Assembly: GCA_963826115.1 (NCBI GenBank)
Contig: CAWGVS010000010.1
Span: 541,444-605,443 of the forward strand
Direction of reading: 5' to 3'
DNA from: an uncultured Candidatus Rokubacteria bacterium
GTDB taxonomy: Bacteria; Methylomirabilota; Methylomirabilia; Rokubacteriales; DASRDR01
Length of the DNA stretch: 64,000 bases
Shown here: positions 11,554 through 38,833 of the stretch, one piece after another
How positions within the stretch are numbered: the stretch's first letter is position 1
Layout: each line of letters begins with the position of its first letter
Notes under the pieces: generated by a model
What the model saw: the letters and a program-made list of their open reading frames with translations, nothing else
Database searches by the model: none
What the model was told of the DNA's origin: nothing
Position numbers and translations under genes: made by a program

Positions 11554-11777
11554 GGCGGAAGACGCCGCCGATGACGGCTAGTCTGCGGATGTTCATGGTA
11601 CCGTGACACGCGGACGGCCGCGATTACTTCAACGAGTCTCGGCCTACCCATAAGCCCGGCAACTTCGGCCTCGATCGGGTGATGCAAGTGCTCCGGAGCG
11701 TCGCGCCGAGCGGAAGCCAGTAGGCGTTGGGGATATCACCGGCGATCGTGCCGTTCAGGGAGAAGGGGCGACCATCC

Positions 11778-14123: not shown

Positions 14124-14184
14124 GGCGACAGGGCGCTCCCGGCGCGAGCCGGGCGACGGGTGGCCGGGGCGGAAGGAGCCACGG

Positions 14185-15297: not shown

Positions 15298-15517
15298 CGC
15301 GCCGGCTGATCGCGGCCCTCGCGGGGCGGCTGGCGGCCCGGCACCGTGGGATCACGCTCACGCCCGTGCTGCTCCGGCGTCACACGGCCGGCGACGGCGC
15401 GGCCCCGGACGGCCGCGTCGCATCCGCCGGGACCCGCGAGTCGATGAGCCGCGGGGCCGGACGTCGCTATCATAGGAGCGTGATCGCGCGACGCCGTCGC
15501 ATCGTTCCGGCCGGATC

Positions 15518-19105: not shown

Positions 19106-19310
19106 CCGGAGTCCCGCGCGCCGCTGCCGCCTCGCGAGGCCGGCGATGTGCCCGGACGCCTCGGTTCAGCGTGCCGCTCCTGACGCCGGGGACGCGATCG
19201 GGCTAGAGATTTCGGGCTGGGGCTCTCGAGACGCACGCCGGAAGCGCGGAAGGCCCGACGGACTCGGGGCGGTCATGCGCCGAGATCGGGCCGCCGGCTG
19301 GAGGCGACGG

Positions 19311-20480: not shown

Positions 20481-20719
20481 GCCCGGGGCTCGGTGGTGGC
20501 CCCGGTGGGCACCCAGGGAGGACCGGAGCGGCCGGGCCCGACACCGGGCCACGTCATCGGCGACCTCGCCGCGTGGGATCACACATTGGGGTATCCACTC
20601 CGATGGAGAGTGGGGACGCAACATGATAGCTGGCGGGGCCTCACGGCGGAAGCCGAAACGGCCGGGGCGAGATCGACTCGCGGTGGCTCGTGCCGAGGCC
20701 CAGCACGAGCCGGCCCGGT

Positions 20720-20843
20720 CGCGCCCGACTGGCGAGAGGCGCTCGACCGGATGCGCGGCTCGGTGGTCTTCTACGCCGGCTTCTTCACGCGCTACAACCG
20801 GCCGCTGGCCGAGAGCGGGTTTGCCGACGCCTCGCGCGCCATG
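20720..20843 (+). pseudogene. Internal fragment of an LLM-class oxidoreductase
   Basis: Translates as REALDRMRGSVVFYAGFFTRYNRPLAESGFADA with no start or flanking domain. Confidence 0.45.
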
Positions 20844-20916
20844 GATGGCGTGTGCCCCGGAATTGCGGTACAAGAATCCTCGTGGAAGCCCCCGGGCGTC
20901 TTCCTGAGGTCTAGCC

Positions 20917-21747
20917 ATGGCGCGCATCATCGGCGGGATCGGCACGTCGCACGTCCCCACCATCGCGATGGCCTTCGACCGGGGGAAGCAGGAGGACCCG
21001 GACTGGCAGCCCCTGTTCCAGGGCTACGCGCCGGTGGCGAGGTGGCTCGCCGAGAAGAAGCCGGACGTCCTCTTCTTCTGCTTCAACGACCATGCCACGA
21101 CGTTCTTCTTCGACCACTACCCGACGTTCGCGCTCGGCGTGAGCGACGAGTACCGCATCGCGGACGAGGGCACGGGGGTGCGCAAGATCCCGCCGCTCCG
21201 GGGCCACGCGGCGCTCTCGCGGCACATCGCGCGGTCCCTGGTCGACGACGAGTTCGACCTGACCATCTTCCAGGACCTGCCGCTCGATCACGGCCTCCAC
21301 TCGCCGCTCACGATGATGTGGCCGTCCCAGCCCGACTGGCCGGGGCGCGTCGTGCCGCTGGTGGTGAACGTGCTCCAGCATCCGCTGCCCAAGCCGAGCC
21401 GCTGCTACAAGCTCGGCAAGGCCATCGGCAAGGCGATCCGGTCCTATCCCGAGGACCTCACGGTGGCGATGGTCGGGACCGGAGGCCTCTCGCACCAGAT
21501 GATCGGCGAGCGCGCCGGCTTCAACGACGAGGCATGGGACCGGGAGTTCCTCGACCTGATCGACCGCGACCCGGAGCGCCTGGCGCGAATGAGCGTCGAG
21601 GACTTCGCGCGCCGGGGCGGCAACGAGGGCGCCGAGGTGATCATGTGGCTCGTCATGCGCGGCGCGCTGGACGACGGCGCGCGCAAGGTGCACGAGAACT
21701 ACTACCTTCCCATGACCACCGCGATGGCGGTCGCCCTGTTCGAATGA
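20917..21747 (+). CDS. Class III extradiol dioxygenase catalytic subunit (gallate dioxygenase / LigB type)
   Basis: MARIIGGIGTSHVPTI, NDH, LDHG, GTGGLSHQ, GAEVIMWLVMRGAL. Confidence 0.92.
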   Translation: MARIIGGIGTSHVPTIAMAFDRGKQEDPDWQPLFQGYAPVARWLAEKKPDVLFFCFNDHATTFFFDHYPTFALGVSDEYRIADEGTGVRKIPPLRGHAALSRHIARSLVDDEFDLTIFQDLPLDHGLHSPLTMMWPSQPDWPGRVVPLVVNVLQHPLPKPSRCYKLGKAIGKAIRSYPEDLTVAMVGTGGLSHQMIGERAGFNDEAWDREFLDLIDRDPERLARMSVEDFARRGGNEGAEVIMWLVMRGALDDGARKVHENYYLPMTTAMAVALFE

Positions 21748-22061
21748 GGTACGTGTTCGACCTGGAGCGAAGCGGCCGGGGGCTCCGGCTCAACCGCTTC
21801 CTTCACGACCTGGTCGTGAGCGAGAAGCGCAAGGCGTTCCTGGAGGACCCCGAGTCCGCCATGCGGAGCCTGACCGACGAGGAGAAGGACATGGTGCGCC
21901 GCCTGGACTGGAAGGCGCTGCAGGACTACGGCGCGAGCTTCTTCTGCCTGGAGAAGCTTGCGCGCACCCGGGGCGTGTCGAACCCCGAGATGGTGGCGGC
22001 GTTCCGCGGGGAGACGCTCGAGGAGTTCCTGAAGACCCGCCGGGTCCCCGGAGCGCGCTGA
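21744..22061 (+). CDS. LigA-like small subunit (equivalent to C-terminal domain of GalA/DesB)
   Basis: MRYVFDLERSGRGLRLNRFLH...YGASFFCLEKLA...AFRGETLEEFLKTR; ATGA overlap with upstream stop. Confidence 0.85.
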   Translation: MRYVFDLERSGRGLRLNRFLHDLVVSEKRKAFLEDPESAMRSLTDEEKDMVRRLDWKALQDYGASFFCLEKLARTRGVSNPEMVAAFRGETLEEFLKTRRVPGAR

Positions 22062-22062
22062 G

Positions 22063-22752
22063 ATGAACGGGACGGTGGTCCGGAGCATCCATCGGACGGA
22101 GGCGGCGACCATCGCCACCCTCGAGCGCCTCGGCGTGGCGACGGTGCACGAGGCCCAGGGTCGTACCGGTCTGATGCAGCCGTACATGCGCCCGGTGTGG
22201 CGCGGCGCGCGGGTCGCCGGCAGCGCGGTCACCGCGCTGTGCCATCCCGGCGACAACTGGATGATCCACGTCGCCTGCGAGGTGCTGAAGCCGGGCGACG
22301 TGCTGGTCGTCGCGTGCTCCAGCGAGAACACCGACGGCGGGTTCGGCGAGCTGCTGGCCACCTCCGTCAAGGCGCGCGGCGCCCGGGGCGTGATCCTCGA
22401 CATGGGCTGCCGCGACGCCGCCGACATCGGCGCGATGAAGTTCCCGGCGTGGTCGCGCGCGATCTCCGCCAAGGGCACCGTCAAGGCGAGCCTCGGCTGG
22501 GTGAACCTGCCGGTGGTGTGCGCCGGCGTGGGCGTGCGCCCGGGCGACGTGGTGGTGGCGGACGACGACGGCGTGGTGGTCGTGCCCCGCCTCGACGCCG
22601 CCAAGGTCGCCAAGGCCGGCGAGGAGCGGGAGAAGAAGGAAGCGGCCAACCGCGCCCGTCTCGAGAAGGGCGAGCTCGGCCTCGACCTCTACGACATGCG
22701 CAAGGGCCTGGCCGAGAAGGGACTCAAGTACATCGACGGTCCGCTGGATTGA
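22063..22752 (+). CDS. ligK: 4-carboxy-4-hydroxy-2-oxoadipate aldolase
   Basis: GVATVHEAQGRTGL, PGDNWMIHVA, DGGFGELLATS, GELGLDLYDMR. Confidence 0.93.
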   Translation: MNGTVVRSIHRTEAATIATLERLGVATVHEAQGRTGLMQPYMRPVWRGARVAGSAVTALCHPGDNWMIHVACEVLKPGDVLVVACSSENTDGGFGELLATSVKARGARGVILDMGCRDAADIGAMKFPAWSRAISAKGTVKASLGWVNLPVVCAGVGVRPGDVVVADDDGVVVVPRLDAAKVAKAGEEREKKEAANRARLEKGELGLDLYDMRKGLAEKGLKYIDGPLD

Positions 22753-23555
22753 AAGCGCTCCTCGGAGACTACCCCGTCACCCGGCAGTTCAAGCAGCGGT
22801 CGTCGCTCGAGTTCGCCGACGTCAGGGTCCCCAACACCGCGTTCAAGCGCGTGGTCCGGGACCTGGAGTTCGACGTCGCCGAGCTGGCGCTCATGACCTT
22901 CCTCCTCGCGAAGGCCCACGGGAAGCCCTACCGCCTCCTGCCCGCGGTGCTGACGGCGCGCTTCCAGCACGCGACGCTCGCCTACAACCCGGCGCGCGGC
23001 CCGCTCTCGCCCGACCACCTCGCCGGGAAGCGGGTGGGGATGCGCTCCTACTCGGTGACCACCGCGACCTGGGTGCGGGGCATCCTCGCCGACGACTACG
23101 GCGTCGACCTGGGGAAGGTCCGCTGGGTGACCCTCGAGGACCCCCATGTCGCGGAGTTCCGGGACCCGCCGAGCGCGACGCGCCTGCCGCCGGGCACGGA
23201 CCTGACGACGATGCTGCTGGCCGGCGAGCTCGACGCCGCCATCCTCGCCGAGCCACCGAAGGAGGGGCCGCTGCGGACCCTGATCCCCGATCCGGCGGCG
23301 GCGGCCGCCGCCTGGAAGGCGAAGCACGGCGCCATCCAGATCAACCACATGGTCACGCTCAAGAGCACGGTCTCCGACTCCCAGGCGCAGCACATCTACG
23401 CGGAGCTCGAGCGGAGCCGGGAAGCGGCGGGGAGCCCCGAGATGAACCCGTTCGGGCTCGAGGCGAACCGCCGGAACCTCGAGGTGGCGATCGACTGCAT
23501 GTGCCGCCAGGCGATGCTCCCGCGGCGCTTCGCGGTGGAGGAGCTGTTCCGATGA
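22749..23555 (+). CDS. 4,5-dihydroxyphthalate decarboxylase-like / periplasmic-binding-fold protein without signal peptide
   Basis: TTG start overlapping ligK stop; EFDVAELA, RSYSVTT..WVRGIL..DYG, INHMV, PFGLEANR. Confidence 0.75.
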   Translation: MKALLGDYPVTRQFKQRSSLEFADVRVPNTAFKRVVRDLEFDVAELALMTFLLAKAHGKPYRLLPAVLTARFQHATLAYNPARGPLSPDHLAGKRVGMRSYSVTTATWVRGILADDYGVDLGKVRWVTLEDPHVAEFRDPPSATRLPPGTDLTTMLLAGELDAAILAEPPKEGPLRTLIPDPAAAAAAWKAKHGAIQINHMVTLKSTVSDSQAQHIYAELERSREAAGSPEMNPFGLEANRRNLEVAIDCMCRQAMLPRRFAVEELFR

Positions 23556-24541
23556 TCGTCGACTGCCACGGCCACTACACCACGGCGCCGCAGGCCCTGT
23601 GGGACTGGCGGAAGCGCCAGGCGTCCGGCGAGAAGATCTCCGAGGCCGCCCTCCGGATCAGCGACGACGACATCCGCCAGAGCCTGGAGGGCGCGCAGCT
23701 CAAGCTCCAGCGCGAGCGGGGCAGCGACGTCACGTTCTTCTCGCCGCGGGCGGGCTCGATGGAGCACCACGTCGGCGACGCCGCGATCAGCGCGCAGTGG
23801 GCGCGCGCGCAGAACGACCTGATCCACCGAGTCTGCGCGCTGTATCCGAGGAACTTCGCGCCGGTGTGCATGCTGCCCCAGTCGCCGGGCGTCTCGCCGG
23901 CGAACTGCGTCGCCGAGCTCGAGCGCTGCGTGCGCGAGCTGGGATTCATCGGCTGCAACCTGAACCCCGATCCGTCGGGCGGCTGGTGGAAGGAGCCGCC
24001 GCTCACGGACCGGTGGTGGTATCCGATCTACGAGAAGATGGTCGAGCTCGACGTGCCCGCGATGGTGCACGTGAGCTCCTCGTGCAATCCGGCGTTCCAC
24101 TTCACCGGCGCGCACTACATCAACGCCGACACCACCGCGTTCATGCAGCTCGTCCAGGGAGACCTCTTCAAGGACTTCCCTCAGCTCAAGCTCGTCGTCC
24201 CGCACGGCGGGGGCGCGGTGCCGTACCACTGGGGGCGCTACCGCGGGCTCGCGCAGGACATGAAGCGGCCGCTGCTCCGTGACCACGTGCTGAGGAACGT
24301 CTACTTCGACACCTGCGTCTACCACCAGCCGGGCATCGACCTCTTGCTCAAGGTGATCCCGGTGGACAACGTCCTGTTCGCCTCCGAGATGGTCGGCGCG
24401 GTGCGCGGGATCGACCCGGAGACCGGCCACTACTTCGACGACACCAAGCGGTACATCGACGCGAGCGGGCTCGGCGCGGCCGACAAGCGCCGGATCTTCG
24501 AGGACAACGCCCGGAAGGTCTACTCGCGCTGGCGGGGCTGA
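23552..24541 (+). CDS. ligJ: 4-oxalomesaconate hydratase (amidohydrolase family)
   Basis: MIVDCHGHYTTAP, NLNPDPSGG, PHGGGAVPYHWGRYRG, FASEMVGAVRGIDPETG. Confidence 0.93.
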   Translation: MIVDCHGHYTTAPQALWDWRKRQASGEKISEAALRISDDDIRQSLEGAQLKLQRERGSDVTFFSPRAGSMEHHVGDAAISAQWARAQNDLIHRVCALYPRNFAPVCMLPQSPGVSPANCVAELERCVRELGFIGCNLNPDPSGGWWKEPPLTDRWWYPIYEKMVELDVPAMVHVSSSCNPAFHFTGAHYINADTTAFMQLVQGDLFKDFPQLKLVVPHGGGAVPYHWGRYRGLAQDMKRPLLRDHVLRNVYFDTCVYHQPGIDLLLKVIPVDNVLFASEMVGAVRGIDPETGHYFDDTKRYIDASGLGAADKRRIFEDNARKVYSRWRG

Positions 24542-24895
24542 GCGCGCAGCGGCCCCGCGCTCGCTCCCCACATCCGATCCGCGACGCTGCCATCGTGCCC
24601 GTGGAGGTGGGCCATCCCGCCCCACGGGCCACGCGGCGGACGGTTCGTCGCGGATGACCGCCTCTCTCCGTGCGACACGCGCCAACGAGTGCCGGCGAGC
24701 GCCGTGGGACCGCTTTGCTGACGACGCTCATGGGCTGCGGCGCGGATCGGCCGTGGGATCCACGTACCGCGTCGACGACGGTCCGGCCCCGGTGATCTGG
24801 ACGATGAACGTCGAGGGCAGGGAGGGCTGCGCGATCGCAGCGCTCGCGAAGAGGACGACGCCGAGCGTGGTCGGGAGGGTCCATCGCATGTCGCC

Positions 24896-24930
24896 AGTAC
24901 CGTGTCCCACAAGTTCGACCCCAGGGTAGC
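24896..24930. mobile_element. Isolated IS630-type end
   Basis: 24898-24930 is the exact 33-bp reverse complement of 27870-27902. Confidence 0.8.
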
Positions 24931-25020
24931 GTCCGCCGGGCCCATGTCGCGGTCGTCGTTGAACTGGAACGGCACGCTGATCAGCGCCGCGACCGGATTG
25001 GAGAACTGTTGGGCGAGCTC
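24931..25020 (-). pseudogene. 5' fragment of an NPVAxLISVPFQ-type outer-membrane protein, cut at the IS end
   Basis: Minus strand reads FSNPVAALISVPFQFNDDRDMGPAD and then runs into the IS end. Confidence 0.6.
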
Positions 25021-25117
25021 ATACTCGGTGGCGGCGACGGCCGGGTGGTGCCAATGGTCGTCGGCGCCGACATGATGGCGCTAAGCGCCCCGACCACTCT
25101 CGACATCCTGGACACAG

Positions 25118-27211
25118 TCAGTCGCTATCGAGAAGGCTGCCGACCTCAAACGGCTTCGGAGCCTTCGCTGGAGCCTTGGCGGCGGTTCCCGGCAGGATCT
25201 CGAAGTCGGGGGTGAATCCGACGAGGCTCGTGCGCAACTGGTCGAACCCCTTGCGGTCGCCATCGAACTTCGCCTTGCCGGCCGCGATCAGATCGTCGAA
25301 CGACGACAGTCCCATCATCACCTGGTTCAGATCCGCGCGGTTGACGGTGATCGTGAGATCCGGCTTCGGCGCCAGAAAGCCCTCGATGTTGGTCAGCGTC
25401 GCGTTGGAGACCTCGATTGCGTACTTCTCGCCGTTGTCGGGCGTGACGAGGTTGATGGAGGTCCTGATTCCCGCGGCCTTCGTCGGATCCAAGCTGATGC
25501 CCACGAAGTCGAGAAACTGGCCCGTGGTCATGGCGCGCACCACGTCCGGTCCAGTCGACCGTGCCGCTACGCCGCCCGACAGACCGGAGCGCAGTTCGAA
25601 CGCCCCCATCAGGAAGGCGTTGCGCACGCTCGTGCTTTCCGACTGGTATCCAAGCTGCTCGTAGGCGTCGGCCAGCAGATCGCGGGCTGGCCGGTTCTGA
25701 TGCTCGGCAAGCACGAGCCGGTTGAGAATCTCGACAGCGGCAAGGTACTTTCCCTGGTCCATCAAGTCCCGGCCCTTCGTCATGATCTTCGCGGAGCCAC
25801 CCATCATCTCGACGTACAGCGGCGCCGCGTCCTGCGGCGAGAGCGGGACCAGGTTGGCCGGATTGCCGTCCCAGTGGCCGAGGAAGCGGTTGACCACGCC
25901 ACGCACGTTGTTGCGCACATCGCCGTGGTAGCTGCGGGCGGCCCATTGCTGCTGGAGGCTCTCGGGCACTGTGTAGACGTTGTGGATCTCGTTGATCGTC
26001 ACGCCCTGATTGACGTAGTGCAGGGTCTGGTTGTTGAGGTTGGCGTAGGTGTCGCGCTGCGTGCGCAGCACCTCTTGGATGCGCGCGTTGCCCCAGCGCG
26101 GCCAGCTGTGCGAGGCGAACATCACCTCGGCTTCCTGGCCAAACACGTAGAGCGCGATGTTGAGCTCCTTGGACCAGTTGAGCGCATCGCGTACGCGCGC
26201 GCCGCGCAACGTGTAGATGTTGTGGATCGTCCCGGTGAGGTTCTCCGCCGTCCACAACGCCTTGAACTGCGGGAAGTAAGTGTGCGCCGCGGAGGGCGCC
26301 TCGGTGTCCGGCGTGTCCTGGAACACCATCCTGACGCCATCGAGTGTGATCTCCTCGAACCGCTTCGAGATCACATGGTTCGGCGCGATCAGCCCGACAT
26401 GGCCGGCGGGCGTGTTCTTGCCGATCGCCTGGTCCACGTGACCGAATGGGTTACGATCCAGCAACACGGCGAACTGCCACTGCGAGCGTCGCGTCATTGC
26501 GTTGCCGGCAAAGACGTTTTCCGCAACCGCCGCCTGCATAAAGTTCGATGGCGCGATCACCTTGACCTTGCCGCTCAGCACGTCGGCCTCGTCCACCACG
26601 CCGCGCACGCCGCCGAAGTGGTCGACGTGCGAATGCGAGTAGATGACGCCCACGACCGGACGTGTGCCGAGCTTCTCATTGATGAAGGCAAGCGCCGCGC
26701 GCGAGGTTTCCGTCGCCGTCCCCGGATCCATGACGATCCAGCCGGTGTCAGACTTGACGAAGGTGATGTTGGTGATGTCGAAGCCACGAACCTGGTAGAG
26801 GCGGTCGGGCACGACTTCGTACAGACCGAAGGCCATGTTGAGGATGGCCTGGCGCTGCAGCGAGGGGTGGATGCTCTCGAAGTCATTGCCCGTGAGCAGC
26901 CACTGATAGGCCTCCATGTCCCACGCGACGTTGCCAGCATCGGCCATGATCTTCTTGAACGGCGGCACCGCGATCAAGCCGCGCTTGTTTTCCTCGAGAT
27001 CCCGCTCGTCCTGGAACGGCAGCGACGCCTTGAGGCCGTTGCGAAGCGCAAGCGTGAACGTGGACGGCGGCTTGCCCCTCGGGTCGAAGTGGCCGGCGGG
27101 CGCCGCCGGCTGCTGAGCGAGCGCGTTGTTCGTCATGGCAAAGGAAACGCCAACCGCGACGGCGACGCCGGTGGCGGCCAGTCGTTTCGTGAACGAGCGT
27201 CTTGCGTTCAT
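25118..27211 (-). CDS. Alkyl sulfatase, SdsA1/BDS1 family (metallo-beta-lactamase fold plus SCP2 domain)
   Basis: Signal peptide; SIHPSLQRQ, HSHVDHFGG, HNIYTLRGA, HSWPRWG, WDGNPANL. Confidence 0.92.
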   Translation of the reverse strand: MNARRSFTKRLAATGVAVAVGVSFAMTNNALAQQPAAPAGHFDPRGKPPSTFTLALRNGLKASLPFQDERDLEENKRGLIAVPPFKKIMADAGNVAWDMEAYQWLLTGNDFESIHPSLQRQAILNMAFGLYEVVPDRLYQVRGFDITNITFVKSDTGWIVMDPGTATETSRAALAFINEKLGTRPVVGVIYSHSHVDHFGGVRGVVDEADVLSGKVKVIAPSNFMQAAVAENVFAGNAMTRRSQWQFAVLLDRNPFGHVDQAIGKNTPAGHVGLIAPNHVISKRFEEITLDGVRMVFQDTPDTEAPSAAHTYFPQFKALWTAENLTGTIHNIYTLRGARVRDALNWSKELNIALYVFGQEAEVMFASHSWPRWGNARIQEVLRTQRDTYANLNNQTLHYVNQGVTINEIHNVYTVPESLQQQWAARSYHGDVRNNVRGVVNRFLGHWDGNPANLVPLSPQDAAPLYVEMMGGSAKIMTKGRDLMDQGKYLAAVEILNRLVLAEHQNRPARDLLADAYEQLGYQSESTSVRNAFLMGAFELRSGLSGGVAARSTGPDVVRAMTTGQFLDFVGISLDPTKAAGIRTSINLVTPDNGEKYAIEVSNATLTNIEGFLAPKPDLTITVNRADLNQVMMGLSSFDDLIAAGKAKFDGDRKGFDQLRTSLVGFTPDFEILPGTAAKAPAKAPKPFEVGSLLDSD

Positions 27212-27480
27212 CGTCTTTTCCTCGGAGGCCTTGTGCGGCCTTGTTCGTCTGTGGGAGCCGACTGCCGCGGACTCCACTGTCAATGATTCCCCCAAGAGGG
27301 GCCGTCTCCCGTTTCCCAGGGGGGGGGGCCCTCCGTAGGCGCCAGGCGATGATCGTGAGCCAATTGAGCCTTCGCTCCTCCGACCCCGCGGCACCGGCCG
27401 CCGGCGACCGGGAACAGCCGCACGATGAAGGTCAGGGGCCGGGGCGGTCATCTTGTCTCCGCCCGAGGTATCGGATGGCC

Positions 27481-27507: not shown

Positions 27508-27902
27508 TAGTACCGTGTCCCAGAAAGTCCACCCCACCTTACCGGTGCAAGGGGTAGCCCTTGAAGGTCCACCGGAAGGGGCGGCTGGTACGGTTCCAAT
27601 GACGGACGAAGCGGACGATCCGCTCGGCTCGGGCCTCGTAGGTCGCATCGCTGGCCGGGGCGAGGGCCTGCCGCTCGAGGATGCTGAACCAGATCTCGAC
27701 CTGATTGAGCCACGAAGCGTGCAGCGGCAGAAGCTCGAACTGGACCCGGCCATCCTGGGCCGCGACCCACGCTCGCACCGCCGTGGCCGTATGGATCGAG
27801 AGATTGTCCAGGATGATGACCAGCCGGCCGCGGGGCCATACCCGATCTTCCACGCGTTCTCACGGCTGAGCTACCCTGGGGTCGAACTTGTGGGACACGG
27901 TA
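27508..27902 (-). mobile_element. Internally deleted IS630-family element (about 395 bp) retaining both ends
   Basis: TAGTACCGTGTCCCA at left end and TGGGACACGGTA at right end; transposase C-terminus between them. Confidence 0.85.
27539..27853 (-). pseudogene. IS630 transposase C-terminal fragment
   Basis: IILDNLSIH, LPLHASWLNQVEIWFSIL, RPFRWT motifs. Confidence 0.9.
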
Positions 27903-28088
27903 GTCCTCGTGCTCGATCGTGTGGATCTGGGTTGGATGCTCGCGGGACCGGCCCGAGCGGGGTTCAGGGGATCGCGAAGCGCGCGGCCCATTCCGCGAAC
28001 GCCTTCAGGAATGTCGCGAGAAGGCCGCGCGGGGTCTCGTAGCCCTCCGGTCCGCCGCCGGGACGCGGCCGGCGCCCCTGATGGCGCA

Positions 28089-29742
28089 TCAGCGCCTCTC
28101 CGTCGGAGCGTCCGCGAGCACGGTGTGGAGCTGTGGCACCACCGCGGCGCCCTCGCCGATCGCCCCGCCCACTCGCTTCGCGGACCCGGCAGCGGACGTC
28201 GCCGATCGCGAACACGCCCGGGATGCTGGACTCGAGCGGTAGCGGGCGAGGCTGGTGGTCGTCCGCTCCCGTCCGGACGAAGCCCTCCGTGTCCAGCGCG
28301 ATCCCGCACTCCCGGAGCCAGCCCGTCGCCGGCTCGACGCCCACGAAGAGGAAGACGTGTCGGATCGGGAGCTCGGTCTCGTCGCCCGTCGTGTCGCGGC
28401 GCCAGCGCACCTGGGCGAGATGGGATCCTGGTCCGGGAGTCAGCCGGGTCATCTCGGTCCGGGGCAGGACCTCGATGTTGGTCGTCGCCTCGATGCGGTC
28501 GACGAGATAGCGCGACATGCTCGTGTCGAGGGACTCGTGCCGGACCAGGACCGACACCTTCGCGGCGAAGCCGGACAGGAACACCGCCGCCTGGCCGGCC
28601 GAGTTGCCGCCCCCGACCAGCGCCACGTGCTCCCCGCGGCAGAGACGCGCCTCGACCGGCGAGGCCCCGTACCAGACGCCGCGGCCCTCGACGGCCTCGA
28701 GGCCGGGAATGGGCGGCCGCCGGTAGCGCGCCCCGCAGGCCACGACGATCGTCCGGGCCCTGACGCGGCGCCCGTCCGTCGTCTCGAGAGTGAACGGAAA
28801 CGTCGCGCAGTCCAGTCGCGCGACGGGGCTCGGGATCACGATCTCGGCTCCGAACTTCTGCGCCTGCACGAAGGCCCGGCCGGTGAGGTCCTGGCCTGAG
28901 ATGCCCTCCGGGAAGCCCAGATAGTTCTCGATGCGCGAGCTCGCCCCCGCCTGGCCGCCGAACGACCGGCTCTCGAGCACGATCACCGACAGTCCCTCGG
29001 AGGCGGCATACACGGCCGTCGCGAGCCCCGCCGGCCCCGCGCCGACCACCGCGACGTCGTACGTCCGGTCGAGATGATCGACGCGCACCATGCCGAGGGC
29101 GCGAGCGAGATCGACCTCGGTCGGGTTCCTGAGCACCGATCCGTCGGGGCAGACCACGACCGGCAGATCGGCGTCGTTCGCCGCGTGGTGCTCGAGCAGG
29201 GCCGCCGCCTCCCGATCGACGGCGGGATCGACCACGCGATGCGGGCCGGCATTGCGGGCGAGGAACCCCTGGAGACGGACGACGTCCGGATGGACGGCTG
29301 GCCCGATCAGGACGGGGCCGCCCCCACCGGTCTCGATCAGGCCGACCCGGCGCAGGAGTAGCGCGCGCATGATCCGCTCGCCGAGCTCGGCCTCCGCGAT
29401 CAGCACGGTGCGCAGCCCGTCGGCGGGGATGACGAGCACGTCGGCGTCGCGCGTGGCTCGCGCGTCCACGAGGCGGGGCTGGCCCGCCAGCATGCCGGTC
29501 TCGGCCAGGAAGCCGCCGGCGCCGAGCTCGATGATCGGGACGACCTGGCCCAGACCGCCCCGGGCGCTGACGTCGACGGTGCCGGAGAGGAGCACGAACA
29601 TGCCGGAGCCGACGTCGCCGGTCGTGACGACCGGCTCGCCGGCCGCGTAGCGGCGGACCGTCCCGAAACGCCGAAGTCGGTCGATGTCCTCCGGGCCGAG
29701 GCTCGGAAACATCTGGCCGAGGCGAGGGTCAGGGTCGGGCAC
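28089..29742 (-). CDS. cNMP-binding domain plus thioredoxin-reductase-like FAD oxidoreductase; one-base frameshift near 28189
   Basis: cNMP domain, GAGPAG, GGQAGASSRIENYLGFP, GGGNSAGQ; after FAIGDVRC the conserved GSAKRVGGAIGEG...RR-stop continues in another frame. Confidence 0.88.
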
Positions 29743-29751
29743 GGTCCAGGC

Positions 29752-30750
29752 TCACGCGGGTCGTGCCTCGCCCGAGGGTTGCCCGCTCTCGAGCGCCGGG
29801 ATCGCCGGCGGTGTCACGCCGCGGACCGGGAAGCCCAGAGACATCCACCGCGCGACGCCCCCCTCGAGGGGGTGGACGCGCGTGATCCCTCGTCGCTCGA
29901 GCAGGAGCGCCACCCGGGCGCTCGTGGCTTCGTTGGGTCAGGCGCAGTAGAGCACCAGCTCGCGATCCCGCGGGACGTCCGCCAGGTGCTCGTCGAGCGC
30001 CTCGGCCTTGATCCAGCGGCTGCCCGGGATCGCGAACGGGGTGGCGACCACGTCGAGCGCGGTGCGGACATCGAGGATGGCCACGTCCTCCCCGGCGTCG
30101 AGCTTCTGCTTGAGCTCGTAGGGCGAGATCCGGGCGATCCGGAGCCGATGGAGGAAGAGGCGGCGCCGCACGTACTTGAGCAGCACGTAGCCGACGAGAG
30201 CCGCCACAACCAGGACTCCCGCGGTGCGCCCCAGGGAGGCGACGCGCTGGGCCACCACCTCGATGGTCTCGCTGAAGACGTAGCCCAGCCCCGCCCAGAG
30301 CCCCGCCCAGAGGAGCACGCCGGCGAGGTCGTAGAGCACGAAGCGGAGGCGGGACACGCCGAAGATCCCCGCGAGGGGCGGCATGACGGTGGTCAGGCCC
30401 GGCAGGAACTTCGCCACGAGCAGCGCGCGGACGCCGTGGCGCAGGAAAAGGTTTTCCGTCCGGCGGACGCACACGTCGGGCTCGAGCGACAGCCGGCAGA
30501 GCCCCGAGAGCACGCGCGCTCCGCGCCGGCGGCCCAGCTCGTGCCAGACGAGGTCGACGGGCAGGGTGACCACCGCGATCGCGCCGAGCACCAGCGGCAG
30601 GCTGACGCGGTCCTGCGCCGCGAGGGCGCCGACCGCCAGGAGCGCCGGGACCGCGGGGAGCGGCACCCCGACCTGCTCGGCGACGACGAGGATCGGCAAG
30701 ATGACGAAGCTGTACCGCTCGAGGAGCTGCACGCTATCGGCGAGGTTCAT
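29752..30750 (-). CDS. DedA-rhodanese fusion, predicted selenoprotein (UGA at 29938-29940 read as Sec), 332 aa
   Basis: DedA motifs (EQVGVPLP, AKFLPG); LYCA-TGA-PNEATSARVA...LEGG...W stays in frame for 61 more codons; hairpin at 29905-29923. Confidence 0.85.
29905..29923 (-). promoter_or_regulatory. Candidate bacterial SECIS element
   Basis: Sense strand GAGCGCC-CGGGT-GGCGCTC, 7-bp stem with G-rich loop, starting 14 nt after the UGA. Confidence 0.7.
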
Positions 30751-30844
30751 GCCGAGGCTCCGCGGGAGCGATCCCGCTCAGACGGGGAACGCGACGACTT
30801 CCAGGCCGGCCCGGCTCGTGGTCTCGTCCGTCGAGGGCATCGGC

Positions 30845-31681
30845 CTACGACTTGATGAACGCCAGGAGGTCGGCGTTGATCACGTCGTGGTGCGTCGTGG
30901 CCATCCCGTGAGGCAGGCCCTTGTAGACCTTGAGCTGGGCCTTCCGGACCCGCTTGCTGGAGAGCATCGCGCTGGCGCCGATCGGGACGACCTGATCGTC
31001 GTCGCCGTGCATGACGAGCGTCGGCGCGTCGATCCGCTCGAGGTCTTCGGTGAAATCCGTCTCGCTGAACGCCTTGATGCAGTCGTAGGCGGCCTTGACG
31101 CCGCACATCATCCCCTGGCGCCACCAGTTGTCGATGAGTCCCGGCGAGACCTTCGCCCCGGGGCGGTTGAAGCCGTAGAACGGGCCCGTCGGAACGTCCC
31201 GGAAGAACTGCGCCCGGTCGGCCAGCAGCGCGGCGCGGAAGTCGTCGAAGACCGCGAGGGGCAGCCCGCCCGGGTTGTTTGCGGTCTTGACCATGATCGG
31301 CGGCACGGCACCCACCAGGACCGCCTTGGCGACCCGGCCCCTCGCTCGCCCGGCGCCGTGGCGGCCGATGTAGCGCGCGACCTCGCCGCCGCCCGTGGAG
31401 TGGCCGACGTGGACGGCGTTCCTCAGATCGAGCTTCTCGGTGAGCGTCACGAGATCGTCCGCGTACGTGTCCATCTCGTTGCCGTCCCACGTCTGGGTCG
31501 AGCGCCCGTGTCCGCGGCGGTCGTGGGCGATGCACCGGAAGCCGCGCGACGCGAAGAAGATCATCTGGGCGTCCCAGTCGTCCGCGCTGAGCGGCCAGCC
31601 GTGGCTGAAGACGATGGGCTGCCCGGTGCCCCAGTCCTTGTAGAAGATCTGCGCGCCGTCCTTCGTCGTGACCGTGCTCAT
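30845..31681 (-). CDS. cpo: Non-heme chloroperoxidase / perhydrolase (alpha/beta hydrolase)
   Basis: [46 protein letters not shown]. Confidence 0.93.
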
Positions 31682-32413
31682 GCGGTGCGTGCCTCCATGG
31701 CATCCAGGGCGGATGCCGTTCCAGCGCCGCCAGGCGAGCCGTCAACCTCGCCGATGGCGGCATATCGGGTCCGGTCGCCTGGTCGATCCTGCTCGGCCTT
31801 CGGGGGTCCTTTCGCGTCGCGGTGGAGGGCGGGGGACCGGTCAGTCGGTCGCTCCACCTCCCGTGGCCTCGCGACCGTTGCAGGATACACCGGAATGGGA
31901 CGAGGAGATCTCGCCGCTCGTCACGGACGCGACTCTCGAGCGCCCGCGAGGCGCGTGGCCGCGGTCTCGTCGGCCTGCTCGCTCGATGATGTGGTTGACC
32001 ACTGATCGACCGGAGGACATGATCCCCTCGGTGAGCGCCTGGGAGTCGGCGTGAACCCGTCGGATCCGCGCCCATCAGAGCTGTGGGATGGAGAGCGCCC
32101 TCCGGCCGGTGAAGTCTCGTGCAGCCACCCCCACTCTCTTAGGGCCGCCGAGAGGCGTGTCGCCCTGTTACCATAGGACGGGAGTGCTCTGAGGAGACGA
32201 ACGAGGCCACGCGGGCCAGCCTAGCCCTGGCATCCAGGCTTCGAGCGGTTCCTGAATCGTCAGGCTCGACGGCGAGGGGTTGGTGACCTCGCGACAGACT
32301 TCGACGGTCAACGCGCCCTGGCGTTGACGCACATCGTGGTGCCGGTGAGGCTGGGGTCCGAATCCAGCCGCTCGAGACGTGATTGAACCCCCTGCGTAGA
32401 AGGAAAGGGACCC

Positions 32414-32566
32414 ATGACGGAATTGCCGAAGTGTCCGACGTCGCGCTGCCAGGACAAGGGAAAGCCCATGCAGCTTGCGGGCCCCCGTCGACACGACAAA
32501 GACCGCAAGATCACGCGGTACAAGTGCCAGACGTGCGGGCAGGAGATCAGCCAGCGGGCGGCCTGA
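32414..32566 (+). CDS. Small zinc-ribbon protein, 50 aa (not in ORF track)
   Basis: MTELPKCPTSRC...YKCQTCGQEISQRAA; purine-rich RBS AGGAAAGGGA. Confidence 0.65.
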   Translation: MTELPKCPTSRCQDKGKPMQLAGPRRHDKDRKITRYKCQTCGQEISQRAA

Positions 32567-33013
32567 GCGTTTCAAGCTGACCACTGGCCGGCCATGTGTA
32601 TCCAGCGGGGGCCTCACCCGGGAGTCTTTGGCGACTGCGGCCGGGGAGCCCCTTGCCGGCATTGACTGGCTGATCGAACCGAATCTCCCCGCATGCACGG
32701 GCCCGGGGTGTTCCACGAGCCGGGCGTTCTGACGGAACGCTCCGCGTGGCCTCAGGCCTGAGGCCGCGACGACTGCCGGGATTCTCTTTGGCATGTCATT
32801 GCCCTGAAGAGCTTGGGGCCCTGGCACGCGAAGGGTAGCTCACCCCTCCGCACGGGCGCCTGGCCGGGCGTCCCCCGTTCGGTCCCTCCAGAAACCGACA
32901 CGCCCGCGCTGGCGAAGAGCACGTCGCCGGCGCCCGGATTGACCACACGCCGTCGTGACCGACGCTGGGGGAGTCGTCGCCCCGCTGGGGGGGGGTTGTC
33001 CTTGGCGTATTGC

Positions 33014-33036
33014 TGTACTAGTATGCTAGTACAGTA
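33014..33036. promoter_or_regulatory. YtrA/GntR-type operator, copy 1
   Basis: TGTACTA-GTATGC-TAGTACA-GTA, abutting the ATG of a GntR-like remnant. Confidence 0.75.
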
Positions 33037-33305
33037 TGAGAATCTCGATCGACCCTCGGATCGGTGCGCACGGCTGGATCCCTAGGCCCGGGCCGGGGGC
33101 AGAGCCCTGCGCGGACCTCAACGAGCGAGCCGGTCTCCCGCGGGTTCCTGCGCTGCCGAGGGAACTGGACGGGGTCGGCGTCACTCCGGACCCGGTCGCG
33201 CGCGCCATCGAGGATCTCAAGCGGAGCGGGTACCGGCCGCTGCACGCGCGCCGGGCCACGCCGGAGCTCCCGCGGGGGCGCGTCGCCCCAGGGCGCGACG
33301 TGTGA
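33036..33305 (+). pseudogene. Degenerate GntR (YtrA-subfamily) regulator
   Basis: MRISIDP start and GVTPDPVARAIEDLKRSGY resemble the GntR wHTH (xNxNTVARAxxxLxxxG); middle is scrambled. Confidence 0.55.
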
Positions 33306-33357
33306 GGCGGAGAAGCGGAAGCGAGCGGGGAGGCATACCCCAGTGGAGGAGAACGTC

Positions 33358-33636
33358 ATGACGCCCGCCATGGAGGGGACGTGGGTGCTCGTCGGGCTGC
33401 TGGTGGGCCTGGTGGCGGGGCTCGTCACGAAAGCGGGAGGCTACGGGCGGAGGTGGGACGTTCTCCTCGCGCTCGCCGGGAGCGTCGCGGGGAGCGGGAT
33501 CGCTTGACTACCGGGGATCGCTCTCGACGCGGAGATGGTCGCGGTGGTGATCGTCGCGTTCGCCGGCGCAGCGATCCTGATCGTCGCCCAGCGGAGGATC
33601 TGGCCGCTCATTGCAGTGCCGCGAGGGCACGCCTGA
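33358..33636 (+). pseudogene. GlsB/YeaQ/YmgE stress membrane protein with in-frame TGA at 33505-33507
   Basis: WVLVGLLVGLVAGLV..GGYG...DVLLALAGS, then after the stop VAFAGAAILIVAQRRIW. Confidence 0.75.
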
Positions 33637-33742
33637 CCGGATCCGATCACGATGGGACTGGCCACCGCGAGCTCGTGGCCGCTCCGATGTGGACCCGCCC
33701 CGAGATGGGCGCCTGAAGCCGGTACGGAGGGAGATCGAATCG

Positions 33743-34060
33743 ATGGACGCACGTGGTGCCGCGGTCATGGTCGCGCCAGCGCGCCGCGCCGAGCAGGTGC
33801 CGGAGATCCCGCAGATTGAGTGCCGCTGGCCCACGATGACGATCAGAGAGCTGACGATGGCCGCGGCCGACACCGCCCTCGCCGCCGACCCCCTCTTCCA
33901 TCTCGGCCCGGGAGGCCACGTGGGCCGGGTCGCGGTGCGCTACTGGCACTTTCGTCCTGAGCTGAAGTACCTGACCTGTCAGGCATGCGCCGAAGGCGAC
34001 GGCCGGTCCGTCGTTGAGCTCGAGGAAGTGGCCTGCCAACACCGGATCCCCACGCGCTGA
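33743..34060 (+). CDS. Hypothetical protein with CxxC
   Basis: RBS GGAGGGAG; YLTCQAC; stop overlaps next start. Confidence 0.5.
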   Translation: MDARGAAVMVAPARRAEQVPEIPQIECRWPTMTIRELTMAAADTALAADPLFHLGPGGHVGRVAVRYWHFRPELKYLTCQACAEGDGRSVVELEEVACQHRIPTR

Positions 34061-34407
34061 TGCCCGTGCGCGTCAGTCAGCTCCGTGGTGGTGCGATTGG
34101 CGGCCGGATGGAGTCCAAACCGGCGATGAGCTGGACGGATCCGCCCCCCAAGCCGACGCTGTGGATGAACGGGACCAGGGATGCGCGCTGGGCACAAGGC
34201 CTTCTCGAGAAGTACGGGATCGACTTCGAGGAGCGTCAGAGTTCCGATCCGTTCGTGTCCCTGTACTGGAACGGGACGACCTATACCGATTTTTCCGGGA
34301 TCGCGGACTTTCTGATGTTCGCGGCGAGGCTGTCGCTGCCGGGGATGAGAACGCGAGACCGCACCGAGGACGGCGAGCTCCCTGGTTCGCGGATACCCCT
34401 CTCGTGA
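34060..34407 (+). CDS. Hypothetical protein (weak glutaredoxin-like pattern, no Cys)
   Basis: TGATG coupling; LLEKYGIDFEE...P.VSLYWNG. Confidence 0.45.
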   Translation: MPVRVSQLRGGAIGGRMESKPAMSWTDPPPKPTLWMNGTRDARWAQGLLEKYGIDFEERQSSDPFVSLYWNGTTYTDFSGIADFLMFAARLSLPGMRTRDRTEDGELPGSRIPLS

Positions 34408-34747
34408 TCTGTCGCCAAGCGTCCCTGGGCGTGGGGAGGGGCGCGCGGTCTCTGCTGGGACAGACCGGTCGAGCGCCGCGGCACGATGAAAGTCGGCGCG
34501 GGCCAGGGGGGGACGTGAAGCTCCGGCGCTGTCGTGAGCGGCTCTTCCAGAGCCAGCGGGCCTCTCTCGGCCTGGGCCTGGTCGCGGCGACCCGCGTCGC
34601 GACCGGCAGCGCGGCGGACCTGATTTGTCGCCCAGCGCACGATGTTTCCCGCACGTGCCTAGGGCCGTCCCTGTGGATGGATGCGTCCCGGCGCCGTCGC
34701 GCCGGAGTTCGACCAACGTCGCGATGATAGGGGAAGGAGCCAACAAC

Positions 34748-35140
34748 ATGGACGCGAACCGAGACAAACGGAGCATGGGAGAGCGGTGGAGTGCGGCGCG
34801 GCCGACCAAGACGGTGGCCTTCTGGTGTTGCGTGGCCTCGGCGGTGCTCACGATGATCGTCGGCTTCAGCTGGGGTGGCTGGGTGACGGGAGGCACGGCC
34901 CGGGCAACGGCGGAGACCATGGCCTTCGAGGCTGTGGCTACGCGCCTGGCCCCGATCTGTGTCCTTCAATCTGGGCGGGATCCGGCCAAGGCCGTGAAGC
35001 TCGTGGCGCTGAAGGGCGAGAGCTCGTGGCAGCGAGGCGAGTACGTCGGCAAGCAAGGGTGGGCGACGATGCCCGGAGAGAAAGAGCCCGATCGCAGAGT
35101 GGCCGAGATGTGCGCCACGCTGCTGATGCCGAGCAGCTAG
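34748..35140 (+). CDS. Conserved-looking hypothetical membrane-anchored protein
   Basis: RBS GGAAGGAG; IVGFSWGGWVTGGTA, LAPICV, QGWATMPG, VAEMCA. Confidence 0.8.
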   Translation: MDANRDKRSMGERWSAARPTKTVAFWCCVASAVLTMIVGFSWGGWVTGGTARATAETMAFEAVATRLAPICVLQSGRDPAKAVKLVALKGESSWQRGEYVGKQGWATMPGEKEPDRRVAEMCATLLMPSS

Positions 35141-35158
35141 TTTCTGGAGCGGCTCCCT

Positions 35159-35188
35159 CGGAGATGGCTCCCGCGGGAGCCATCTCCG
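35159..35188. terminator. Perfect 30-bp palindrome downstream of ORF 34748-35140
   Basis: CGGAGATGGCTCCCG|CGGGAGCCATCTCCG. Confidence 0.6.
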
Positions 35189-35714
35189 GTTCTCACGCTC
35201 GGGGTGCCGCGGGGCTGGGTCAGGCCAGCCAAATTGGACCTAGGAAGGCGGGGAAGGCGATGGGGGAGCGAGCCAGACGCGTAGCCGGCCACGTGTTTCG
35301 GACACCGGACTGTGACCCCGGCCGTGGCCCGGGCCACGGCGCCGAGGGGGCTCACGCCGTGAGCGGGCCTGCGAGATCCGAGAGGCGTGAGGACGGCCGC
35401 GGCGGCCCATCTCTGGAGCGCGATCCGTATCAGGACGAGGGCGGGGAAGGCTGATGCTGACCGTTCTTTGCTCCGCCAGGCGCCGGGCGACGCCGCGTCA
35501 CCTACGGTGAGCGTGGCATCCTGATCCGGCCCGTCCACACGCGCGCGGCGTGATCGGCGGGTCACAGAAGTGGCAAGAATCCGGCCGGATCGGCCCTCCC
35601 GTCGGAGGACGCTCAGCGCGAGGCGGTCGGCCGCTTCAGCAGGGGCCCGAGAGGAGACCGCTCGATGGTGTCGGCCCCATTCGGCTTGGCTCTCGGCCTC
35701 ATCGCAATCACCGC

Positions 35715-35759
35715 TGGACTAGTGTACTAGTAAAGTAGTACAGTAGATGAACTAGTCCA
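35715..35759 (+). promoter_or_regulatory. groESL promoter region with YtrA-type operator copy 2 nested in a second inverted repeat
   Basis: TGTACTA-GTAAAG-TAGTACA-GTA at 35723-35745; TGGACTAGT 35715-35723 and ACTAGTCCA 35751-35759. Confidence 0.75.
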
Positions 35760-35793
35760 CTCACCCACATCTGGACAGGGGAGGACCCCGACG

Positions 35794-37801
<2,008 letters not shown>

Positions 37802-38128
37802 CCCGCCGGCCAGAGCATCCGACTCGCCGACGGCCTCCGGGGGATCCTGCCTCCGGCGGCCGTGCGGCGTCGATCGCGATCGAGGTGTGGGGATCGGCCT
37901 CGAAGGGCGCAGGACCACACGCCACGACGAGACGAGGACGAGGAAGATCACTCGGGACGTCCAGGAGACAGCCAGGGGCATCAGGCCCCGCCGGCAAGAA
38001 CCTGGAAGAGAGCACGCAGGGCTTCGGCGAGTCCGTCTGGGGATCGTACGAAGCTTCCTGCAGAAGGCTTTATCGGCGGCTAATTACGTTGGGTACGGAA
38101 GTAATTGAGATATTGAGAGGAGAGCACC

Positions 38129-38575
38129 ATGACCACCATGCTTCGCTGGTCCCCGGCTCGGAAGTTCCACTTTCACCACGACGTCGATGCGCTGTTCCCG
38201 GGGTTCTTCGACGGCGCCACAGACGAGGCCGCTCAGCATGCCCCAGCGTGGCTCCCCGCCGCTGAGGGGCGGATCGACGACGGCACCTACGTCATCCAGC
38301 TCGCCATGCCGGGCGTGGATCCGAAGGACGTCCAGGTGTCCTGGATGAACAACGTCCTCACGGTCAAAGGCGAGCGCAAGGCCGATCACGACTCCACGGG
38401 CAAGGACTACTTCCTCCGGGAGCTCGCGTACGGCGCGTTCCAGCGGACCTTCGAGCTCCCCGAGGGCGTCGATGTCGCCCACGTGGAGGCGAAGTACACG
38501 AACGGCATGCTCGAGGTGAGGGTGCCGGCGCCACGAGCTGCGATGCCGAGGATGATCGAAGTCAAGGCCGCCTGA
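38129..38575 (+). CDS. Small heat-shock protein (Hsp20)
   Basis: MPGVDPKDV, LTVKGERK, YGAFQRTFELP, AKYTNGMLEVRVP. Confidence 0.93.
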   Translation: MTTMLRWSPARKFHFHHDVDALFPGFFDGATDEAAQHAPAWLPAAEGRIDDGTYVIQLAMPGVDPKDVQVSWMNNVLTVKGERKADHDSTGKDYFLRELAYGAFQRTFELPEGVDVAHVEAKYTNGMLEVRVPAPRAAMPRMIEVKAA

Positions 38576-38833
38576 TCCAGGGCGGCGGGGGCCGAGGACG
38601 TGCCGGCGCCGACCGGCACGCGCCTCGGCCTTCGGCAGCTTTCGGTGTGGCGGCGAGGGCCCGAGCAACGGGGAGTTGAGGCTCGGACCATGGCGCGGGT
38701 GCCCCCTTCGGGCCCTGGGAGGCGATGCCTTGCCGGGGATGTAGCGCGGAACCGAACAGACGAACGGTGACCTCCCTGGCTCTCGGATGCGCCCTGGACC
38801 GCAGGCCGGGCCGGCCAGCGACAGGAGAGGAGA

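Follow-up and report, generated by a model that had tools for sequence, protein, structure and literature searches.

Known relatives of the DedA-rhodanese selenoprotein and its neighbors

Rhodanese-domain selenoproteins with a Cys-x-Sec motif (Sec, selenocysteine) are a catalogued type, which appears as "form 3" in the available portion of a 2026 review (PMC13188914) and as "form 2" of COG0607 in that of another (PMC9312934), and which NCBIfam represents by the model NF041203 (rhodanese_LYCAU), a free-standing protein of about 126 aa. The DedA/VTT family, with YqjA and YghB of Escherichia coli and the undecaprenyl-phosphate transporter UptA, comprises membrane proteins, one of which has been linked to selenite uptake in Cupriavidus metallidurans (Ledgham 2005, as cited in the accessible part of PMC8679861). 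Here we analyze a locus at which the two are combined. It lies on a 64,000-nucleotide stretch of DNA from an uncultured Candidatus Rokubacteria bacterium of the phylum Methylomirabilota (assembly GCA_963826115.1, contig CAWGVS010000010.1, positions 541,444 to 605,443), which as a whole is called the window, and the gene in question encodes a DedA membrane protein whose C-terminal third is a rhodanese domain with an in-frame TGA in the Cys-x-Sec position. It is flanked by the gene of an alpha/beta hydrolase and by that of a flavoprotein resembling thioredoxin reductase (TrxR), the reductase, which carries an N-terminal cyclic nucleotide monophosphate (cNMP)-type sensor domain and lacks the CxxC dithiol. 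In the core protein, the catalogued selenoprotein type appears as a fusion variant: the NF041203 model is matched at positions 19-123 of 126 with an E-value of 9.8e-24 and 83.4 bits, below its 115-bit cut-off, and the LYC-x-U loop with the same type of Sec/Cys pair is present as LVLYCA[U]PNE. Toward the DedA/VTT family, the VTT_dom (PF09335) is shared at 37.5 bits, above the Pfam gathering cut-off of 33.9, whereas all equivalog models stay far below their cut-offs (PRK10847, E 4.8e-12; UptA models, E 1e-7) and the Sec rhodanese domain is an addition. A first-pass annotation of this DNA had taken the three genes for a relay of an architecture not described before, which does not hold for the Sec rhodanese domain type, as this is already in NCBIfam and in reviews. 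No literature report on a DedA-rhodanese selenoprotein was found, and supplementary selenoprotein lists may name the fusion; the word "DedA" occurs 0 times in the available text of PMC13188914.

The reductase also has described counterparts. The literature search found only one biochemical report for its CxxC-less family (PMC6544261), whose accessible part describes ATII-TrxR from a Red Sea brine metagenome, a TrxR of about 58 kDa with a Crp/cNMP domain that binds FAD and reduces 5,5'-dithiobis(2-nitrobenzoic acid) and a thioredoxin with either NADPH or NADH. As described there, ATII-TrxR has the same architecture as the window's reductase (N-terminal cNMP-type, FAD and NADPH domains) and comes without a membrane or rhodanese partner; it is a putative member of the CxxC-less family.

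For a cooperation of a flavoprotein with a rhodanese or a Cys/Sec center, two kinds of enzymes are of relevance. In the coenzyme A-disulfide reductase or NADH persulfide reductase type, the flavoprotein works together with a rhodanese cysteine. The best match of the window's rhodanese domain in the PDB is the rhodanese end of a fusion that likewise pairs a pyridine-nucleotide flavoprotein with a rhodanese Cys (6pfz, "NADH oxidase NoxA-3", 551 aa), which by analogy is a precedent for a flavoprotein/rhodanese partnership; there, however, both parts form one polypeptide of another flavoprotein subfamily without Sec and without a membrane domain, whereas here they are encoded by separate genes that adjoin in some genomes only. 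Mammalian thioredoxin reductase possesses a C-terminal Gly-Cys-Sec-Gly redox center, in which the Cys/Sec selenenylsulfide is reduced in an FAD-driven reaction. The likeness to this enzyme is one of concept only, namely the use of Cys/Sec as an outward-facing redox center, as the mammalian protein has the high-Mr fold, carries its Cys and Sec adjacent and in cis, and keeps its own CVNVGC dithiol.

Selenocysteine in the DedA-rhodanese protein

Among the 120 database matches listed, public gene calls mostly end at residue 270, as would be expected if the in-frame TGA were a real stop and the gene a truncated DedA gene or a pseudogene. This reading has a negligible probability in our view and was rejected, as it is contradicted by the conservation of the TGA and of the coding sequence and a hairpin beyond it, by cysteine at this position in full-length homologues, and by a complete Sec machinery in the genome. 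In the read-through translation, the TGA lies in the motif LVLYCA[TGA]PNEATS within a domain that Pfam recognizes as Rhodanese (E 1.8e-10), and an alignment with solved rhodanese domains puts C269 in the place of their catalytic Cys, the loop being two residues longer here. A TGA follows "C-x" in all 46 DedA-rhodanese genes, which stem from 45 sources, namely the window and 44 loci in genomes of the Methylomirabilota, and in relatives the sequence conservation goes on past it. Locus L113 (genome G048) was left out of this count, since its DedA open reading frame (ORF) failed the codon-position GC filter, and one relative outside the set (L036) has Ser at the Sec position and no TGA. In alignment A1, the Sec column is occupied by Cys in 11 of 14 database homologues (LYCACPNEATSARVAL), by Ser in two and by Arg in one, the latter being an aberrant entry that diverges from the Sec column onward. 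The source genome encodes selB (347.8 bits), selA (576.5), selD (393.2) and a tRNA-Sec (76.9), all above the curated cut-offs. The Cys-x-Sec reading that had been made from the sequence alone is thus correct.

The hairpin that starts shortly behind the TGA is a candidate selenocysteine insertion sequence (SECIS), and it belongs to the minimum-free-energy fold. Its folding energy alone is unexceptional in comparison with shuffled sequences (z = -0.34 in this GC-rich DNA of 70%), which speaks against a special role when taken by itself. The codons that form the stem are nevertheless frozen at their synonymous sites, with Ser AGC in 46/46, Ala GCC in 44/45, Val GTG in 38/38 and Ala GCG in 46/46 genes, while the codons beside the stem vary freely (Ala as GCC in 24 and GCG in 20 genes, Glu as GAA in 21 and GAG in 25, Gly as any of four codons). 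The SECIS case, as far as sequences can make it, therefore rests on conservation and not on folding energy. An exact-pattern scan for the TGA together with the hairpin returned at least 119 stretches from Acidobacteriota, Methylomirabilota, Myxococcota, Gammaproteobacteria, Binatia and others, and 71 of 80 loci out of these at least 119 stretches are DedA-rhodanese fusions. We are hence nearly certain that the middle gene encodes a genuine, widely conserved membrane selenoprotein, in which the UGA is predicted to be decoded by means of the conserved hairpin.

Some further observations concern selenoproteins in the same and in related genomes. The selD gene of the source genome (G000:C5:561687-562604) has an in-frame TGA itself, so that its selenophosphate synthetase is probably a selenoprotein, too. 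A second DedA-rhodanese gene of this genome (L121, G000:C6:1155478-1156404) is 52% identical to the first and also has an in-frame TGA; it is accompanied by genes of a MacB/FtsX-type ABC exporter, an EamA transporter and a GDSL lipase, and this arrangement recurs in four or five other genomes, depending on which neighbor gene is considered. The rhodanese part moreover matches open frames of about 505-550 aa with one in-frame TGA (for example G037:C375:81220-81582 and G043:C75:96620-97045), which may represent further rhodanese-domain selenoproteins fused to another enzyme.

The reductase: sensor domain, missing dithiol and frameshift

The domain assignment of the reductase was confirmed, with Pfam cNMP_binding at residues 30-114 (E 5.2e-16; PF00027, 58.8 bits versus a cut-off of 27.5) followed by Pyr_redox_2 (E 3.4e-35). 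Its closest solved relatives are the low-Mr thioredoxin reductases (5uth, E 5.5e-41), and the corresponding model TIGR01292 is matched with 194.9 bits, below the curated cut-off of 343.45. As had been noticed before, no CxxC is present, since the stretch GVWYGASPVEARLC (ASPVEARLC) occupies the position of the TrxB motif: GASPVEARLC replaces CATC, and the same stretch, G.GV.Y.A..EA..C...GGGNSAGQAA, is found in 11 of 12 relatives, the twelfth being broken. The flavoprotein is thus dithiol-less, as are all relatives that were examined, and one Cys is almost invariant in the family (alignments A2 and A3; L075 of genome G094 was left out of A2). This CxxC-less family is very large and has at least 8000 members, with all of the 8000 scored candidates at E <= 1e-40.

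In cyclic nucleotide-binding domains, the canonical phosphate-binding cassette follows the pattern Glu ... Pro-Arg-Ser/Thr-Ala. The corresponding region is divergent in the window's protein (AE...QPRLV), and most relatives have GR-x-S or GRP-x with another spacing. Because the cassette region is so divergent and variable, a cyclic nucleotide is only a possible ligand of the sensor domain.

The reductase had been taken as one frame that ends at 28089, which does not apply to the DNA as assembled. The assembled ORF continues to 27964 with a tail that is unrelated to any match, and the conserved C-terminus (GSAKRVGGAIGEGAAVV...RR, stop at 28089-28091) is reached only with one base fewer near 28190. 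This extra base is absent from the DNA of three orthologues (G004, G019, G040). It is also absent from environmental contigs, which were collected from four sequencing runs (X1-X4), none of which reached more than 0.29 of the sampled words: a 169-nt contig of X1 (record 2, 28171-28340) matches with zero mismatches and lacks the base, and so do contigs of X2 and X3 with about 95% identity to the window, whereas among the listed contigs of X4 none covers this position. If the extra base is left out, the reductase would have 550 aa, the typical length of its database relatives. As the orthologues and contigs lack the base and the length is otherwise typical, the insertion is either an error of the assembly or a mutation private to this strain.

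Neighborhoods of the three genes

The trio was expected to be a conserved unit, which it is not. It was seen only in the window and in soil contigs that are about 95% identical (X2, X3 and X4; records 12, 17, 19 and 27), in which the contigs bridge the reductase and DedA-rhodanese genes as well as the DedA-rhodanese and hydrolase genes. Beyond these, 43 other loci of the reductase were inspected together with 45 other sources of DedA-rhodanese genes, 80 loci from metagenomes and 80 from across phyla, and the trio was absent from all of them. For the 43 reductase places, about 6 kb were fetched on each side, with three of them wider; for the DedA-rhodanese neighborhoods, the search covered 46 sources, all but one of which yielded the gene, and the window is counted wherever it belongs to the set. 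The tallies also include the unpublished genomes G038, G055 and G094, and no specific claim depends on these three.

Around the 43 other reductase places, a DedA-rhodanese gene was found in four and a hydrolase gene in six. Of the four DedA-rhodanese genes, those of G040 and G135 are divergent and adjacent, that of G169 forms a tandem with the reductase gene in the same orientation, and that of G004 lies at a distance of 12 kb. Conversely, the hydrolase is present in 5 of 19 other DedA-rhodanese loci when 1.5-kb flanks are considered. The neighbors of the DedA-rhodanese gene in the 46 sources of the phylum are a hydrolase (8), resistance-nodulation-division (RND) pump (7), TrxR-like protein (5), short-chain dehydrogenase/reductase (SDR; 4) and pirin (3), and ferritin/Dps and RND or MacB pumps are also found; across phyla (80 loci), they are an SDR (11), nitroreductase (8), YceI (8), MarR (5) and PNPOx-like protein (5). 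As read from these sequences, the neighborhood has a redox and electrophile stress flavor and no fixed partner. At one locus (L058, G019:C2), a fusion of a metallo-beta-lactamase with a rhodanese is encoded about 2.4 kb upstream of the DedA-rhodanese gene, and a RidA-family gene lies near the DedA-rhodanese-pirin pair; together, the persulfide-dioxygenase-like fusion and RidA hint at sulfur trafficking.

A CxxC-less TrxR-like flavoprotein gene abuts the selenoprotein gene in five other genomes, in three of them as a tight tandem and in one of these in another phylum. In G169, the selenoprotein gene and that of a cNMP-type reductase, which is only 47% identical to the reductase of the window, share an ATGA, in which the stop codon of the first overlaps the start codon of the second, and in G028 there is an 8-nt overlap with the gene of a TrxR-like protein that has a weak REC-like N-terminus and no CxxC. 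In a metagenome-assembled genome of the Acidiferrales (L244), a protein with REC and TrxR-like parts (GAGVYYGAGPAEAISC) is encoded behind the selenoprotein gene on the same strand, and in G040 and G135 the flavoprotein gene is divergent from the selenoprotein gene at a distance of about 100 nt. Tight coupling thus recurs in a second phylum as well as in three genera of the Methylomirabilota, and with different flavoprotein subfamilies. By rough arithmetic, with about 1.5 target genes per 5 Mb, only about 0.05 chance adjacencies are expected among 46 reductase places, and it is unlikely that this recurrent tight coupling arose by chance.

The hydrolase had been assigned to the perhydrolase family, which holds. 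It matches chloroperoxidase F (1a8s) with E 1.1e-127 over residues 3-277 in the PDB sequence search, chloroperoxidase L (1a88) with E 1.3e-124, arylesterases with about 1e-90, and Abhydrolase_1 with E 3e-29. With its full-length likeness to the cofactor-free (non-heme) chloroperoxidases and to the arylesterase/perhydrolase of Pseudomonas fluorescens (1a8s, 1a88, 1va4) and with its GHSTGG nucleophile motif, it is, to judge from its sequence, an ordinary member of this family. In four metagenome loci (L159, L160, L163 and L174), a membrane protein of about 170-180 aa without a Pfam match is encoded between reductase and hydrolase, in the same middle position that the DedA-rhodanese gene takes in the window; when translated, the intervening proteins of L159 and L174 show four hydrophobic segments each.

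Proposed role of the selenoprotein and alternative readings

A mechanism can be proposed in which the selenoprotein is the core. Its rhodanese domain would be cytoplasmic, as judged from the strongly basic stretch (KYVRRRLFLHRLRIAR) behind the last hydrophobic segment, and its substrate would be something supplied or removed by the DedA domain at the membrane, with a chalcogen oxyanion as the leading guess. The Cys/Sec pair may carry a persulfide or perselenide, or it may cycle through a selenenylsulfide. The downstream NAD(P)H flavoprotein, which has the TrxR fold and no dithiol of its own, would be coupled to it through the operon as a facultative donor of electrons, by which the Cys-x-Sec loop or a species bound to it is recycled, and its N-terminal sensor domain would act as the switch. 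The hydrolase, a recurrent neighbor of the flavoprotein, is probably co-regulated in redox or electrophile stress and not a member of a relay. We favor this reading as a whole, that is, a selenoprotein core with a facultative flavoprotein donor and a co-regulated hydrolase, but do so tentatively and with less than even confidence, and the functional partnership of flavoprotein and selenoprotein is, considered on its own, likewise possible rather than probable. It could be taken further by analogy, in that CxxC-less sensor flavoproteins might borrow the Cys-x-Sec loop in trans as their missing redox center, which would create a signal-gated, NAD(P)H-driven membrane selenoenzyme that reduces or traps chalcogen species moved by DedA; we regard this extension as improbable.

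Several observations weigh against a partnership with the reductase. The reductase family (E <= 1e-80) is found in 40 of 251 genomes of the phylum, and the selenoprotein is far more widespread. None of the 19 other DedA-rhodanese loci has a reductase gene within the 1.5-kb flanks, and a TrxR-like gene occurs within about 6 kb of the DedA-rhodanese gene in only 5 of the 46 sources, the window included. No DedA-rhodanese gene is present near 80 reductase homologues of 53-70% identity (the metagenome loci), and the 80 cross-phylum loci contain a TrxR-like gene in only two cases, one of which is distant and weak, and a hydrolase gene in none. The window's reductase is frameshifted as assembled, and the orthologues of G019 (L059) and G008 (L093) are also split into two frames, which represents either gene decay in the family or indel errors in the assemblies. 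The activity described for ATII-TrxR (accessible part of PMC6544261) furthermore suggests, by analogy, that disulfides can be reduced by this family with no need for a Cys/Sec partner from outside. Evidently, the selenoprotein works without a flavoprotein partner in most genomes, and the partnership, as far as gene order indicates, is facultative, a minority arrangement and not an obligate relay.

The main alternative is that the genes are neighbors only, three independent genes of redox or electrophile stress that are perhaps co-regulated, with no contact or electron transfer between their products, and this is about as likely as the mechanism that we favor. The neighbors of the DedA-rhodanese gene vary widely within the phylum and across phyla, their order and orientation change from genome to genome, and the same stress-type genes (ferritin, RidA, SDR) surround the reductase elsewhere, all of which would be expected of such a loose assembly. 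What this alternative does not easily accommodate is that in G169 and G028 the start and stop codons of the DedA-rhodanese gene and of a TrxR-like gene without CxxC overlap, and that the two genes are also directly adjacent in an Acidobacterium, particularly as the partners in these coupled pairs come from different flavoprotein subfamilies, for which neither inherited synteny nor chance is an easy explanation. At the other extreme stands the model of the first-pass annotation, an obligate three-component relay gated by a cyclic nucleotide. It could draw on the co-oriented trio with its short gaps in the window and on the same gene order in the soil contigs of about 95% identity, but the trio appears nowhere else in the neighborhood counts, which largely refute an obligate relay of three genes. 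The cyclic-nucleotide gate is specifically disfavored, because the sensor domain of the coupled flavoproteins differs between lineages, being of cNMP type in some and of REC type in G028 and L244, and the phosphate-binding-cassette region is divergent and variable. We consider this relay very improbable.

It is also conceivable that the functional pair consists of the reductase and the hydrolase, which would act on a peroxide, a peracid or an ester, and that the DedA-rhodanese gene merely lies between them here. The hydrolase gene indeed adjoins the reductase gene in G019 (L059), G043 (L074) and G057 (L090) and is at most 4.2 kb away in L084, L085 and L088, and a hydrolase of 66-69% identity is encoded in 11 of the 80 metagenome reductase loci, where it mostly starts 1.4-2.3 kb beyond the end of the reductase gene; four annotated loci among these metagenome loci have a small protein with four transmembrane segments in between. 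The link is nevertheless a minority arrangement, seen at 6 of the 43 reductase loci in the phylum and at 11 of the 80 from metagenomes, and the hydrolase gene adjoins the DedA-rhodanese gene without any reductase in G014, G002, G011 and G012 and is 1-4 kb off in G003, G035 and G047. We therefore think that such a pair is unlikely to be the functional unit and retain the selenoprotein core with a facultative flavoprotein donor as the favored reading.

Layout of the locus and its surroundings

The three genes are arranged head to tail on the minus strand in the order hydrolase, DedA-rhodanese protein and reductase (Table 1), as had been stated before, and the gaps between them were likewise confirmed, with 94 nt between hydrolase and DedA-rhodanese genes (30751-30844) and 9 nt between DedA-rhodanese and reductase genes (29743-29751), so that the GTG start of the reductase at 29742 lies nine nucleotides beyond the DedA-rhodanese stop. 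A scan for promoters and terminators gave nothing useful on the operon boundaries.

Table 1. Features of the hydrolase, DedA-rhodanese and reductase locus, in window coordinates
Feature	Position	Strand	Basis
Perhydrolase/arylesterase-family alpha/beta hydrolase, 278 aa	30845..31681	-	Pfam Abhydrolase_1, PDB sequence search
DedA/VTT protein with C-terminal rhodanese domain, selenoprotein gene of 332 codons with Sec at codon 271; ATG start at 30750, true stop TGA at 29752-29754	29752..30750	-	Read-through translation, Pfam, NCBIfam
In-frame TGA, UGA read as Sec (Cys269-Ala-Sec271)	29938..29940	-	TGA conservation, Cys column, Sec machinery
SECIS-type hairpin GAGCGCC-CGGGU-GGCGCUC, starting 14 nt 3' of the UGA	29905..29923	-	Minimum-free-energy fold, synonymous-site conservation
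cNMP-type sensor plus TrxR-like flavoprotein without CxxC (reductase)	28089..29742	-	Pfam, NCBIfam, orthologue DNA alignment, family alignments A2/A3
Single extra base, CGCT[G]CCGGG, shifting the reductase frame	28190..28192	-	One-base gap versus three orthologues, environmental contigs

Just downstream of the reductase gene, a fragment of an IS630-type transposase is found at 27539-27853 on the minus strand (Pfam DDE_3, E 6.2e-15). In a soil contig (X3, record 17), 560 different letters replace the window's 42 (28040-28083) just downstream of the reductase stop, and the sequence at this place therefore differs between window and contig. On the other side of the locus, no ORF passes the codon-position GC test over about 4 kb (31700-35700). 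Upstream in window coordinates (11724-27451) lie genes of a sulfatase, a luciferase-like monooxygenase, a fused ABC transporter and an alkyl sulfatase, a set that suggests organosulfur scavenging, and downstream (35734-40837) are those of GroES/GroEL, Hsp20 and FtsH. The synteny from GroES to the hydrolase is common to the window, G014 and G012.

Significance

For the annotation of such genomes, two practical points follow. Public gene calls cut the DedA-rhodanese protein short at its Sec position, and annotation should read through the TGA. In case of the reductase, the frameshift should be checked before the gene is labeled a pseudogene.

As a new lead, the locus offers only the facultative link between the selenoprotein and TrxR-like flavoproteins without CxxC. 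The occasional translational coupling of the two provides a testable first hypothesis for the function of a very large family of flavoproteins that resemble thioredoxin reductases and lack the CxxC. DedA proteins are ubiquitous and their substrates are debated, and the fusion with a Sec-containing rhodanese domain is a chemical hint that at least this group may be concerned with the handling of chalcogens at the membrane.

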